From Acidobacteriota bacterium (lineage in GTDB: Bacteria; Acidobacteriota; Polarisedimenticolia; JAPUKU01), in the NCBI GenBank assembly GCA_027295505.1, contig JAPUKU010000045.1, positions 20,586-84,585 on the forward strand: a stretch of 64,000 nucleotides of DNA, read 5' to 3'. Shown here one piece after another: positions 43,909 through 48,801 of the stretch; within the stretch, counting starts at the first letter, position 1, and every line of letters starts with the position of its first letter. The notes beneath the pieces were generated by a model. The model was given only the letters and a program-made list of their open reading frames with translations, did not search any database and was not told where the DNA came from. The position numbers were made by a program, and so were the translations under genes.

Positions 43909-44757
43909 TCATGCGGAGTGCCCTGGCAGCGCCTGTGCTTCCGGCGTCAGGTGGCCTCGGTAGACCAGGCGGGCCTCCCCGCACAGGGTGACCTCGTCCA
44001 GGCGTCCGGAGTTGCGTCGGAAACGGATGCTGATGGTCGCTCCCGAGCGCACCCGGAAACGCAGGGGCGATCGCAGACCCGGATCGCGATGGGCCAGAAC
44101 CAGGGCGGCCGCAACACAGCCGCTGCCGCAAGCAAGGGTCTCCGATTCCACGCCGCGCTCGAACGTCCTGAGAGGGCGCACCCCTCTCCGAGGGGAACCC
44201 ACAAAATCGATGTTTGCGCCCGACCGGAAGGCAGAGTGCCGTCTCAGGCGTGCAGCAAGCGGAGGTAACAGGAGACTTTCCGGCACGCCCCTGAGCAATA
44301 CGAAGTGGGGAACACCCGCGAGGATCTCGTAACCCCACACGTTCCGGCCGTCCACCCGCAGGCACCGCCGCCGCGGCTGTCCCATGGCGAAGCCCAGGCC
44401 GGAGTCAACCCCGCCCCGGTGCACGCGAGCGCGGATCTCACCCGCGTCCGTGTCGAGCCGCACGATTCCGTCCCGACCCCGGCGCAGGGCCTCCCACCGT
44501 GCCAAACAGCGGCTGGCGTTGCCGCAGAAAGGGTGGCTGCGACCGTCCGGGTTATAAAACTTCACCCGCAGTGCTCCATGCCGACGGCCCAGTATTACGG
44601 CCACTCCATCCGCTCCGACCGAGACCCCGCGCCGGCAGACGGCGCGAACCCAGCACCCCATGGAGCGCGGCAGCCTCGCCTGCCGAGCATCGACCAGAAT
44701 GAAATCGTTGCCAGCTCCCGAAAACTTGGCAAACGGTATTGGCGGGGACTTTCTCAT
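43909..44757 (-). CDS. dapF: diaminopimelate epimerase DapF
   Basis: FAKFSGAGNDFILVD near the N-terminus, NPDGSHPFCGNASRC, and the second catalytic Cys in ETLACGSGCVAAA. Confidence 0.9.
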   Translation of the reverse strand: MRKSPPIPFAKFSGAGNDFILVDARQARLPRSMGCWVRAVCRRGVSVGADGVAVILGRRHGALRVKFYNPDGRSHPFCGNASRCLARWEALRRGRDGIVRLDTDAGEIRARVHRGGVDSGLGFAMGQPRRRCLRVDGRNVWGYEILAGVPHFVLLRGVPESLLLPPLAARLRRHSAFRSGANIDFVGSPRRGVRPLRTFERGVESETLACGSGCVAAALVLAHRDPGLRSPLRFRVRSGATISIRFRRNSGRLDEVTLCGEARLVYRGHLTPEAQALPGHSA

Positions 44758-45908
44758 GGTTCACCTGCGGGTCGGCGAGCGGGGCGCCCGGGCCTCTCAA
44801 CCGTGACTGCACGCGGTCGCCTCACGGTGCCGGACACCGGATCCGAGGGCTCGCTCTCGTTCTGCTGCGGCGAGGAGTCGATGGCGGTCATCCGGTACTC
44901 GACGGCGGCGCCCTCCGGCGGCTCTTCATCCAGCCAGGTGACATCCCAGGGGGGAAGCTCCGTCACCTTCGCCTCCTCCCCACCCTCCAGGCGGCGGTAG
45001 ACACGGTAACCCGCGAGATCCGGCTCGCGGTTGGGGGACCACAGGAGCCGTAGGCCCTCACCCTCGATCACCAGCGTCAGCCTCTTCGGCGCAGCGGGAG
45101 GAAAGATGTCACGATACGTCATAAGCTCCGATTGCACGAACGGTCCTGCGACCCACGCACGCTCACCTGCCTTGCGGCGCAGGCGCACCGAGTATCGGTA
45201 GCTCCCGCCCAGGCGCACGGAGGCATCCTCGAACTCCCCGGCGGCGGGGCTTACGTGCGCCAGCAACACCCTCGGCTGGTCTTCCTCTTGCCGATACATC
45301 TCCAGACGCCCCTCACCTTCCAGGGGTTCCCACCGAACACGCAACCCGTCAGGCTCAGGGATCAGCTCCAGGGAAGATGTCGCCGGGAGCGGCTGCGCCG
45401 GTACCTGCAGATGCACTGCGTTCGAGACCGTATGCCGCCGGCCGCTGCGGGTCAGAAGCACAACCCGCAACCATTCTTCCGGCGCCAGTTCCCGGGTTTC
45501 GATCTGCCAGCTCATACGCCGCGGGCGGCGGCCGGACTGCGACGCCCAATCGATGACGGGGCCTTCCTCCTGCGTCGCGCGCTGGAGGAATTGTTTGAGA
45601 TCGGACGCTTCGGGCTCCGCGGGGGCAGCACCGGGACCCGCTTCCCAAGCCGCGCGATACTCGACGTGTGCCGGGCCCGGCTCGAGGGGCGGTGAAGCCC
45701 CCCAGGCGAGTTCCAGTGCATCGCCGGCAAGCGTCACCTCCAGGTCGCCCACCGGGGGCGGCGTGCGTGGAAGCGGAGGAAGAGGAGGGCCCTTCTTGCC
45801 GCACGATCCGGCAAGGAGAGCTGCCAGCAGCGCGGCCGCCAGCGGGCCGGCCCATAATGGGCGGCTGGCCGCGTTAGAGGATGTACTTGCTGTGATCCTG
45901 ATCACGCG
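44754..45908 (-). CDS. lipoprotein with a Pro-rich linker and two fibronectin-type-III-like domains
   Basis: Lipobox LLAGSC after a hydrophobic stretch. FN3-like segments: [19 protein letters not shown].. and [59 protein letters not shown]. The only in-frame start before the signal peptide is the GTG at 45908, overlapping the hslU 3' end by about 35 nt. A competing ATG ORF in another frame (45355-45855) was rejected. Confidence 0.5.
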
Positions 45909-47235
45909 CAATGCTGGCCAGCATCCGGTGCACGTAGGCGGCGTCAATGCGCTGCTTCTTGGTGGCCAGATCGGGAGCTTCGAAGGAAATCTCGTCGAGC
46001 AGCTTCTCCAGCACGGTGTGCAGGCGACGGGCTCCAATGTTTTCGGTTCGCTCGTTGACCTGATGGGCATATTCCGCGATGGCGTCGATGGCATCCGGTG
46101 TGAACTCGAGCTGCACGCCTTCCGTTCCGAGCAGAGCAGTGTACTGCCGGATGAGGGCGTTCTGCGGTTCGGTCAGAATGCGCACAAACTCTTCCTTACC
46201 CAGCGGGTCCAGTTCCACACGGATCGGGAACCGGCCCTGCAGCTCCGGGATCAGATCGGAAGGCTTGCTGGTGTGAAAAGCACCCGAAGCTATGAAAAGA
46301 ATGTGGTCGGTGCGAACCATGCCCTGGCGCGTGTGCACTGTGGTGCCTTCCACGATGGGTAGAATATCTCTCTGCACGCCCTCACGGCTGACATCCGGCC
46401 CGTTGCCGCCCTCTCGCCCAGCGACCTTGTCGATTTCGTCAATGAAAATGATGCCGCCCTGCTCGACTCTGCGAACCGCTTCGCGCGTGACCCGTTCGTG
46501 ATCAATCAGGCGTTCCTGCTCCTGCCGGATGAGATGGGGTCGCGCCTCGGACACCTTCATGCGCTGCTTGCGTCCACGCGCACCACCGAACAGGCTGGGG
46601 AGGATCTCCTTCATGCTGATCTCCAGATCCTCCATGCCGCCACCCGTGAACAACCGCACCGATGAGGGGGCCGCCATGGGGACCTCGATCTCAATCATCG
46701 CTTCCTCGAGATTGCCGGCCCGGAGTTTCTGGCGCAGCTTCTCCCGGGTGCGCTGATGTGACTCGATCCCTCCCTCCTCGGGGGACGCCGCGGCCGCGCC
46801 TCCGGCGGCCGTCGGCAGCAGGGCGTTCAGGAGCCGATCCTCCGTTTGTGAGGTCGCCTGTTGAAGAACCTCGGCAAACTTCTCTTCCTGCACCATGTCC
46901 ATTGCCAGCCCCATCAGATCACGCACCATCGACTCCACGTCCCGGCCCACGTACCCGACTTCCGTGAAACGGGTTGCCTCGACCTTGAGGAACGGCGCTT
47001 GGGCGAGTCGGGCCAGACGACGGGCGATCTCGGTCTTGCCAACACCCGTAGGTCCGATCATGATGATGTTCTTCGGCGCGATCTCCTCGGCCAGCTCCCG
47101 CGGCAGCTTCTGCCTGCGCATGCGGCTGCGCAGGGCCACCGCAACCGCGCGCTTGGCCGCGGTCTGTCCGATGATGTAACGATCGAGCTCGGTGACAATC
47201 TGCCGGGGGGTGCGCTCTTCCGGCGTGGAAGCCAT
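45874..47235 (-). CDS. hslU: ATP-dependent protease ATPase subunit HslU
   Basis: N-terminus [33 protein letters not shown] aligns to E. coli HslU. Walker A ([16 protein letters not shown]), an I-domain, and a C-terminal second AAA module. Confidence 0.9.
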
Positions 47236-47283
47236 CTGCACCGACTCACCGCCAGTGGCGCCGGGCAACTCGAACACCATGCC

Positions 47284-47862
47284 TCAAAGCTCCTCTACGA
47301 CCACACTATCGTTCGTATAAACGTCAATGCCCGCTGTGATGCACATCGCCTCACGGGCGATATCGGCGGCTTCCATCTGCGTGTGTTGAACCAGCGCGCG
47401 CGCAGCCGCCAGCGCACAGGATCCACCTGAACCGATGGCCAGCAGGCCGTCGTCCGGTTCGATGAGCTCTCCCGTGCCGGAAAGCAGGAACGTGCGTTCG
47501 CTGTCTCCGACGACCAGCAGGGCTTCGAGTCGCCGCAGCACCCGATCCGTGCGCCAGTCCTTGACGAGTTCCACGGCGCCGCGCTCAAGGTTGCCCCGGT
47601 ACTCCTCCAGCTTAGCCTCGAAGCGGGCGAATAGGGACATCGCATCCGCGGCCGAGCCCGCGAACCCGACCAGAACCGTGTCCCGGTACATTCTTCGAAC
47701 CTTGCGGGCGCCGTGCTTGACGATGGCCTCGCCGAGCGTCACCTGCCCATCCCCTGCCATGGCCAGACGGCCTCGATGACGGATCGACAGGATGGTCGTG
47801 CCGCGGAACTTTGGGTGAATGCGACTTATGCGATGGCTCCGTTGGGGTGGGAGAGGGCCCAC
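47284..47862 (-). CDS. hslV: ATP-dependent protease subunit HslV (CodW-like), start or pro-sequence unresolved
   Basis: [23 protein letters not shown]...[12 protein letters not shown] is strongly HslV/CodW-like. The codon before the catalytic Thr-Thr is GGC, with no adjacent start. The nearest in-frame canonical start is the GTG at 47862, which would give a 21-aa N-terminal extension. The 318-aa ORF in the track is an artefact of the open frame. Confidence 0.75.
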
Positions 47863-47892
47863 GCGTCCCGGGTTAGCCGTACAATATACCAC

Positions 47893-48801
47893 GTGTCCGA
47901 CGGGTCTCCAGGAAGACAGCGGCCGGCCATCCGGGTCGGCACCGCCGGCTGGTCGTATGCGGACTGGGAAGGCATTGTCTATCCGCGCCCCGCCCCCGCC
48001 CATTTCGACCGGCTGGCCTTTGTGGCATCCTTCTTCGACACAGTGGAGATCAATACATTCTTTTATCGCCTTCCCGAACTCCACCAGGTAGAGTCCTGGG
48101 CCCGGAGGGTCGCCAACCGGCCCCGCTTCAGGTTCGCGGTAAAGGCCTGGAGCCCCCTCACGCACGGCCGCTCCGGGATTAACGTCGAGGATGCGGCCGA
48201 TCAGTTCGTCCGGAGACTCCAACCTCTGCGGGAGGCACACCTCCTGGGTGCGGTGTTGCTGCAGTTTCCCTACCGATTCCGCCCCATCGACAGTTCAATC
48301 CGACATCTGGAGAACCTTTCGAAGCTGCTGGCCGGCCTGCCTCTAGTGGCGGAGTTCCGTCGTGCGAGCTGGGATTCGGGCCAGCGCCTCGAAGCGCTCG
48401 CCGAGCTCGGCGTGGCATTCTGTAATATCGATCAACCACCGATTTCCGGAAACCTACCGCCGACAGCCCATGCCACCACACGCCTGGGGTACGTGCGCCT
48501 GCACGGGCGTAACCGCGATTCCTGGTTCAACGAGGAAGCAGGCCGCGACGCTCGCTATGACTATCTTTACGGGAAAGCGGAGCTCGAGGAGTGGGTTGCG
48601 CGGATCGAGGAACTGGGCGCGCGCGGAGCCGAGGAAATTTTCATCATCGCAAACAACCATTATTGCGGCAAGGCGGCCTGCAATGCGCTGGAGCTCCAGC
48701 GCATGCTCGTCGACAACAACTCCCGCGCGCCCGCGTCGCTGGCGGACGCCTATCCCCGCCTCGGTCCGTCCGGATCCTCGTTCCAGCGCCGCCTGTTCTG
48801 A
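47893..48801 (+). CDS. DUF72-family protein (YecE-like)
   Basis: [21 protein letters not shown].. N-terminal motif and the overall DUF72 pattern. I chose the GTG at 47893 as the start so it does not overlap divergent hslV. Confidence 0.75.

Follow-up and report, generated by a model that had tools for sequence, protein, structure and literature searches.

The hslVU locus and its reading frame

The window analyzed here, a 64,000-nucleotide stretch of a contig from an uncultured Acidobacteriota bacterium, carries an hslV–hslU gene pair on the minus strand, located next to a divergently transcribed gene for a DUF72 protein. The mature part of HslV is encoded by 171 codons (47287–47799), from the catalytic Thr1 (ACG, 47799–47797) to Leu171, and ends at a TGA stop (47284–47286). 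The gene for the partner ATPase HslU (45874–47280, minus strand, 468 aa) starts 3 nt after this stop and scores 616.7 bits against TIGR00390, with a cutoff of 362. The DUF72 gene (47893–48801, plus strand, 302 aa; PF01904, E = 7e-55) has a GTG start that is shared by three other loci (L004, L097, and L098).

Assignment to HslV, the ATP-dependent protease subunit of peptidase family T1B, is supported by two equivalog models, NF003964 (260.4 bits, cutoff 137) and TIGR03692 (254.6 bits, cutoff 157.75), as well as by a Pfam PF00227 match (E = 3e-22). The TIGR03692 alignment covers profile positions 1–171 of 171; it begins exactly at Thr1, which is residue 11 of the 181-aa form of the protein, and runs to its end. 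Thr1, Thr2, Asp17 (AGD17GQ), Lys33 (ARK33VR), and the GSGG loop (IGSGG) all align with the structures 1yyf and 1m4y, and the hslV–hslU gene order is kept in all orthologous loci. The first-pass annotation had described the protein as closest to Bacillus CodW. This holds among solved structures, where B. subtilis CodW (1yyf/2z3a) is the best match (E = 5e-65); the true nearest relatives, however, are Acidobacteriota HslVs with 92% identity. Judged from these sequence features, we consider with moderate confidence that the locus represents a functional hslV–hslU operon of an uncultured Acidobacteriota population.

The 5' end of hslV is unusual. The minus-strand frame runs from GTG (47862) through the ten codons GGC CCT CTC CCA CCC CAA CGG AGC CAT CGC to ATA (47829), then AGT CGC and ATT (47820), then CAC CCA AAG TTC CGC and GGC, which directly precedes ACG ACC (47799–47794), and continues with ATC CTG; translation from the catalytic Thr onward reads TTILSIRH. 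Thr1 is not directly preceded by any type of start codon, no in-frame ATG, GTG, or TTG lies between the GTG at 47862–47860 and Thr1, and ATG is absent from this stretch in all frames. Reading the frame thus confirms the earlier observation that hslV has no canonical start beside its catalytic Thr, and that the nearest one in frame is the GTG at 47862. Distances from the DUF72 start (GTG 47893) are 30 bp to this GTG, 63 bp to the ATA, and 93 bp to Thr1, in agreement with the 30–90 bp noted previously. Likewise, the 318-aa ORF that spans the junction (47284–48240) is a mechanical read-through, as had been suspected: its upstream 147 aa have no Pfam match, and the opposite strand of this part encodes the DUF72 protein.

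Annotation pipelines disagree on the product of this frame. Three pipelines yield three proteins, namely 158 aa from an internal Met, 178 aa from ATT, and 192 aa from GTG, and none of them uses the ATA that occupies the orthologous start position (see below). The 158-aa product, which is carried by 11 contigs, is devoid of the catalytic Thr, and this call allows the neighboring DUF72 gene to be extended too far, to 341 aa.

The 5' region is reproducible across independent contigs

Nine further contigs (L001 and L097–L104) possess a 115-bp 5' region identical to that of the window, including the ATA, ATT, and GTG codons. These contigs originate from at least eight assemblies, obtained from different runs with different assemblers (NCBI GCA_036448035.1, GCA_036477135.1, GCA_044231025.1, and GCA_044345325.1; ENA ERZ23498363; Logan SRR10168433, SRR35275867, SRR35275868, and ERR10503091), and are 99.4–99.95% identical to the window, each differing from it at 1–7 other positions over 1.2–3.5 kb. 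In 10 contigs, the ORF is uninterrupted and retains every catalytic residue. Because the nine contigs share the 5' region while differing elsewhere, ATA is a genuine allele that appears to have become fixed in a population, at species level, of this uncultured bacterium.

These data also bear on whether the missing ATG could be an assembly or sequencing error, i.e., a substitution or an indel in the GC-rich junction, which the first-pass annotation had listed as a possible cause. The nine independent contigs refute such a local error, each carrying the same 5' region and its own differences from the window; moreover, no ATG lies nearby in any frame, so that an indel could not restore one. We regard the probability of this explanation as negligible.

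Orthologues point to a probable start ten codons before the catalytic threonine

Eleven of the 12 best protein matches (76–92% identity; e.g., P0001) are 181 aa long and begin M-x9-TT, and the twelfth is a mis-called 158-aa form. At the DNA level, the upstream regions of eight orthologues (L002, L004, L086, L087, L088, L090, L091, and L092) were aligned with the window and L001. In all eight of these closest orthologues sampled, ATG occupies a single column ten codons before Thr1; in this column, the window and L001 carry ATA. The allele is limited to the window population (contigs at least 99.4% identical), and all sister lineages sampled, from 92% identity downward, have ATG. A scan of metagenomes with the pattern GCCATCGCATRAGYCGCATTCA recovered a single true orthologue (L095), which has ATG; its two other matches were fortuitous and lay in unrelated sequence. 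An M-T-T start at the same position in orthologues, which according to the first-pass annotation would have implied a local sequence error, was not what emerged; the orthologues start M-x9-T-T.

Two of the orthologues are informative on whether coding extends further upstream. In L087, a TGA interrupts the frame 11 codons upstream of the ATG, and the codons between the two include no further canonical start; in L090, an invariant promoter −10 box (see below) ends only 14 nt before the ATG. Since the TGA and the position of the −10 box make the upstream extension non-coding in L087 and L090, respectively, sequence comparison identifies the −10-codon position as the true start in the window's clade. 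The corresponding codon of the window is ATA (47827–47829), a proposed near-cognate initiation codon, and the most likely propeptide coding region (47800–47829) comprises ten codons ending with Gly(−1), orthologous to the 10-residue leaders of P0001 and P0002–P0012.

A different start was proposed in the first-pass annotation, namely the canonical GTG (47860–47862), which would yield a 21-codon leader removed autocatalytically. This GTG is the only canonical in-frame start codon, and L002, L004, and L086 also have it in frame. In the closest relatives that keep ATG, it may already act as a minor second start, one that would have taken over once ATG was lost. The segment between GTG and ATA is also better conserved than synonymous sites, with its few substitutions mostly in third codon positions: over these 33 nt, divergence from L002 is 6% compared with a dS of 0.35, and both changes fall on third frame positions. 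Such conservation fits translation from GTG and a constrained 5'UTR equally well. On the other hand, the extension is out of frame and broken by the TGA in L087, and has no counterpart in L090, L091, and L092. The ATG column in 8/8 orthologues, together with L087 and L090, indicates that the 21-aa leader is probably not the native form, and we assign initiation at GTG a modest, minority chance.

The start annotated by NCBI is the ATT at 47818–47820, which gives a 178-aa product with a 7-residue propeptide (MHPKFRG|TT; P0122, equivalent to MCZ6777744.1, MEE8537035.1, and MEE9230874.1, three MAG records). Leaders of seven residues do occur in relatives (P0013, with a GTG start, P0050, and P0117), and among the non-canonical starts of bacteria, AUU, used by E. 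coli infC and pcnB, has the best documentation (PMC5499595). However, the choice made by an annotation pipeline is heuristic rather than evidence, and none of the closest orthologues uses this position, where the codon varies (ATT, CTC, CCC, ATG, and others). Initiation at ATT is therefore judged unlikely.

Leaders before Thr1 are common in the HslV family

To place the window gene in its family context, leaders were surveyed in 72 species-representative genomes carrying the most similar HslVs, covering Acidobacteriota, Nitrospirota, Desulfobacterota, Rokuibacteriota, Binatia, and Bacillota. In all 72 species, at least two codons separate the nearest canonical start from Thr-Thr, and an M-T-T start was found in 0/72. 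The leader measures 2–13 codons in 71 species, against which the 21-codon leader implied by the GTG start is an outlier. The last three leader residues across related species follow the pattern F/I/M/L–H/R/K–G/A/S, followed by TT.

The single exception in length is a member of Rokuibacteriota (L025) with 26 codons, another gene that lacks a canonical start close to Thr1. Together with the 2–13-residue leaders across the surveyed species, it would fit the speculative idea, taken up below, of free start-site evolution.

According to the literature, most HslV subunits have propeptides (PMC8665760). In S. aureus, the HslV extension is cut off when HslU and ATP or AMP-PNP are present, exposing Thr9; in vitro, cleavage affected no more than about 20% of the protein, and S. 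aureus is the sole species with shown propeptide cleavage (PMC7468587). The CodW of B. subtilis, in contrast, is reported as uncleaved (PMC7468587). The CodW-like pro-sequence proposed earlier for the window gene is thus well founded as a leader, given its presence in 72/72 species and the published CodW and S. aureus HslV precedents, and yet it is an ordinary trait of the family. By the residues encoded before its catalytic Thr, the window gene is an extension-type pro-HslV. The intact catalytic residues, the Gly(−1)|Thr1 junction, and the S. aureus precedent suggest that the window propeptide would be cleaved and Thr1 exposed. The survey also indicates that the HslV leader, considered "Gram-positive-type", is the norm in Acidobacteriota, Nitrospirota, Desulfobacterota, Rokuibacteriota, and Binatia as well.

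Promoter, leader RNA, and initiation context

A promoter scan of the region returned only one site, with 0.1 expected. Its extended −10 element (TGgTATATT, 47883–47891, minus strand) lies inside an 18-nt block (47878–47895) in which the motif TGnTATATT and its surroundings are invariant in 10/10 aligned sequences, and the flanks of this block are unalignable. A −35-like hexamer (TGGAGA, 47905–47910, minus strand) is separated from it by a 16-nt spacer and falls inside the DUF72 coding region; no conservation of this hexamer was found in the orthologues. From the position of the −10 block, transcription is predicted to start near 47876, which would leave a 5'UTR of about 47 nt before the ATA but just some 14 nt between the 5' end and the GTG. 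Leaderless initiation at GTG 47862 was considered and rejected, as this codon is 21 nt downstream of the −10 box.

A Shine-Dalgarno-like GGAG (47837–47840, minus strand) is located 7 nt before the ATA. The same motif is found 7–8 nt before the ATG in L086 and L087, and L002 and L004 have GCAG. For the ATT, GGAG is 16 nt upstream, beyond the usual spacing, and the GTG has no such motif at a useful distance, with only GGGA 3 nt upstream. The possibility that GGAG arose as a compensatory Shine-Dalgarno sequence for a weak start was rejected: L086 and L087 carry it together with ATG, and it is therefore ancestral. A thermodynamic model gave unpaired probabilities of 0.99 for AUA, 0.93 for AUU, and 0.10 for GUG, and predicted GGAG to be mostly paired. 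Of 44 long ORFs of the window, 22 have a Shine-Dalgarno-like motif ahead of one of their first four candidate starts, close to the approximately 44% that chance would give. Since such motifs show no clear enrichment at the gene starts of the window and GGAG is predicted to be mostly paired, the Shine-Dalgarno argument for ATA is weak.

The leader was also inspected for RNA elements. No Rfam family matched anywhere in the window at the gathering threshold, and within 47700–48000 there was no match even at E ≤ 1. A hairpin formed by GUGGG-N6-CCCAC was discarded as a structured leader, the fold being no more stable than that of shuffled sequences (z = 0.66). A consensus fold of the leader, derived from five sequences, was likewise abandoned: its covariation term was +1.2, and of 12 predicted pairs just 1 was kept through two-sided change.

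Based on the ATG column of the orthologues, the L087 and L090 upstream regions, the spacing of GGAG, and the predicted open AUA as opposed to the paired GUG, we favor, somewhat above an even chance, translation from the ATA at 47829–47827, a near-cognate start that would produce a 10-residue propeptide. The ATT start with its 7 residues and the GTG start with its 21-residue leader are the less probable alternatives. The sequence itself, its reproducibility, the ATG of the orthologues, family membership, and purifying selection are direct results; the initiating codon is deduced from orthology and context, and the expression level and the cleavage of the propeptide are likewise deductions.

Selection on hslV and expected output of the ATA start

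In E. coli reporters, AUA initiates at approximately 1–2% of AUG, and GUG performs far better than AUA (10.1101/063800), which speaks in favor of the GTG start. AUA reached 7.5–15% in two phage genes and was equal to AUG in an optimized context in vitro, and an AUG-to-AUA change reduced T4 rIIB translation by about 85% (PMC5499595). Considering these efficiencies in reporters, phage genes, and an optimized context, output of HslV in the window population is probably lowered but not abolished.

The same figures could be read as a loss of the start, with HslV essentially not made, the gene decaying, and other proteases compensating. The 1–2% value in vivo and the T4 rIIB result are in line with this scenario, and so is the comparison of two ATA-bearing strains, in which hslV shows two non-synonymous changes and one synonymous change, although so few changes carry little weight. 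However, the dN/dS of mature HslV against ATG-bearing orthologues is 0.05–0.14, equal to the values among those orthologues themselves, and hslV is under purifying selection. Relaxed selection in the ATA lineage was not detectable by dN/dS, with only three substitutions in the two-strain comparison. Furthermore, the ORF and its catalytic residues are intact in 10 contigs; hslU, the promoter block, and the leader are intact; the allele is apparently fixed across many samples; and the in-frame GTG and ATT are available as back-up starts. Decay after start loss is accordingly considered very improbable. The case at hand is a near-cognate codon at an orthologous start, defined by eight orthologues and reproduced in nine contigs, in a gene whose dN/dS indicates constraint; it is not a phylogenetically conserved non-canonical start of the infC kind, as ATA occurs only in the window population.

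Proposed maturation and its implications

We propose that, as in most relatives, HslV is synthesized as a precursor carrying a short propeptide at its N-terminus. In the lineage, the ATG ten codons ahead of the catalytic Thr is the ancestral start; the population studied here has ATA instead, and the initiator tRNA would most likely pair with this near-cognate AUA, probably at reduced efficiency. After assembly, the enzyme would itself cut off the propeptide at Gly(−1)|Thr1 by means of Thr1/Asp17/Lys33, exposing Thr1, and this cleavage would probably be stimulated by ATP-bound HslU, as in S. aureus HslV. Under this scheme, the mature N-terminus is set by cleavage rather than by the start codon, and ATA, ATT, or GTG would therefore give the same enzyme. 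Plausibly, this is why drift in leader length (2–13 residues) and loss of the ATG are tolerated.

A more speculative possibility is that the ATG-to-ATA change is an adaptive throttle, making the synthesis of this stress protease sensitive to IF3, ppGpp, or temperature, or lowering the HslV:HslU ratio, and that it is tolerated only through Gly(−1)|Thr1 autoprocessing. We consider this quite unlikely; were it true, self-cleaving N-terminal nucleophile enzymes would form a gene class with unusually free start-site evolution.

The locus offers a candidate for a start codon that has naturally changed from AUG to AUA, and become fixed in a population, in a conserved gene of the housekeeping or stress type. 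Neither this case nor the wide distribution of leaders changes the understanding of HslVU. The locus is mainly of use for annotation, where it shows that the start of N-terminal nucleophile proteases with propeptides should be placed by comparison with orthologues and not at the nearest canonical codon.

Comparison with known systems

The closest functional parallel is S. aureus HslV (ClpQ; 6kr1/6kui), which matches the window protein with E = 6e-59 in an alignment that reaches into the leader. Both have an extension before Thr-Thr (MSNTTLHA|TT in S. aureus) and a gene located beside hslU, and in S. aureus the extension is cleaved with ATP-bound HslU (PMC7468587). The S. aureus gene, however, has a canonical ATG, an 8-residue leader, and Ala(−1); in the window gene, ATA occupies the conserved start position, the leader is 10 residues long, and position −1 is Gly. 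B. subtilis CodW also resembles the window protein in its short leader (MSSFHA; a 5-residue extension according to the literature), whose F-H-A|TT belongs to the same motif class as K-F-R-G|TT of the window, and the Bacillus loci L069 and L075 are approximately 59–60% identical to the window protein by tblastn. Unlike the enzyme proposed here, CodW reportedly retains its leader, with Ser2 acting as the nucleophile (Kang 2001 and Rho 2008, cited by PMC7468587 and PMC5777263). The HslVs of E. coli and Haemophilus (1ned and 1g3i; E = 3e-54) share the fold family, the catalytic residues, and the hslVU operon. E. coli-type HslV begins M-T-T and has only its initiator Met removed, and its alignment with the window protein starts at residue 11, i.e., at Thr1.

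Regarding the processing step, the β-subunit propeptides of the 20S proteasome are described in PMC4792962 and PMC7468587 as undergoing Gly(−1)|Thr1 autolysis by Thr1/Asp17/Lys33 after assembly, as proposed for the window HslV. Proteasome propeptides are reported to be 11–72 residues long (PMC7468587) and aid complex assembly (PMC8665760), in contrast to the 2–13 residues of HslV leaders. Regarding the start codon, E. coli infC and pcnB (AUU) and the phage AUG-to-AUA mutants are comparable with the proposed window start in having an AUH codon, decoding by the initiator tRNA, and a lower efficiency that depends on IF3 and context (PMC5499595; 10.1101/063800). The infC start differs in being phylogenetically conserved and having a demonstrated autoregulatory role, whereas the window ATA belongs to one population and the sampled sisters keep ATG. 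Taken by analogy with these systems, the window locus would, on balance, combine propeptide removal of the S. aureus type with a near-cognate start of the infC/pcnB type.

Sequence conservation upstream of hslV

Upstream of hslV, on the minus strand at 47878-47895, lies an 18-nt block with the pattern C[A/G]C[G/A]TG[G/A]TATATT[G/C]TACG. The block is invariant or nearly so in all ten aligned hslV upstream sequences (the window, the near-identical contig L001 and the orthologous loci L002, L004, L086, L087, L088, L090, L091 and L092), while the intergenic DNA around it could not be aligned. Because this conservation exceeds the needs of an extended -10 element, the block may also contain a site at which a regulator of the hslVU operon binds.

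The predicted hslV 5'UTR differs in length between lineages, being approximately 47 nt in the clade of the window versus approximately 7 nt in L090 (ENA ERZ27256953 k141_5719371, positions 2478-2503). In the latter, only 14 nt separate the end of the conserved -10 box from the hslV ATG, and the short 5'UTR predicted from this spacing would therefore leave no space for a Shine-Dalgarno site.

A C-rich segment of 33 nt (47830-47862, minus strand) separates the upstream GTG from the ATA codon that occupies the ATG column of the orthologues. The segment shows two differences from L002, i.e., 6%, compared with a synonymous divergence of 0.35 for hslV. Both differences fall at third positions of the hslV frame. 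As judged from these alignments, the conservation may stem from translation that starts at the GTG at a low level, or else the segment may be a constrained 5'UTR in which pyrimidine-rich sequence serves as a landing site for ribosomes.

Gene calls around hslVU

In the assemblies of four near-identical contigs (L099-L102), the hslV call begins at the internal Met14 and gives a protein of 158 aa without the catalytic Thr. These same assemblies lengthen the divergent DUF72 gene to 341 aa, with a start at the ATG at 47833 (47833-48801, plus strand), so that it crosses the hslV promoter and leader; in other calls it comprises 302 aa and starts from the GTG at 47893. The wrong hslV start call is thus carried over into the call of the adjoining DUF72 gene.

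The next gene 3' of hslU (approximately 44754-45910, minus strand) is called in L002, where it encodes 385 aa and precedes a DAP epimerase gene, and in the near-identical contigs L097 and L098, where it encodes 383 aa; no confident Pfam domain was found in it. In two close relatives, contigs L002 and L004, approximately 38 nt of this ORF fall within the 3' end of hslU. In the more distant locus L091, the ORF in the corresponding place is free of overlap with hslU; it is longer, at 421 aa, and gives a faint match to Fn3_SaeA_2nd.

A second HslV gene with no canonical start close by

Another HslV gene that has no canonical start close to Thr1 was observed in L025, a Rokuibacteriota MAG (JACPCF010000013.1), approximately 80 nt before position 2501. 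Its nearest in-frame ATG, GTG or TTG lies 26 codons before the catalytic Thr1, and the leader reads ...GGGPGGGGDPLRKGIRG|TT. Among the 72 species parsed, representing the genomes with the most similar HslVs, this is the sole case of a distant canonical start.
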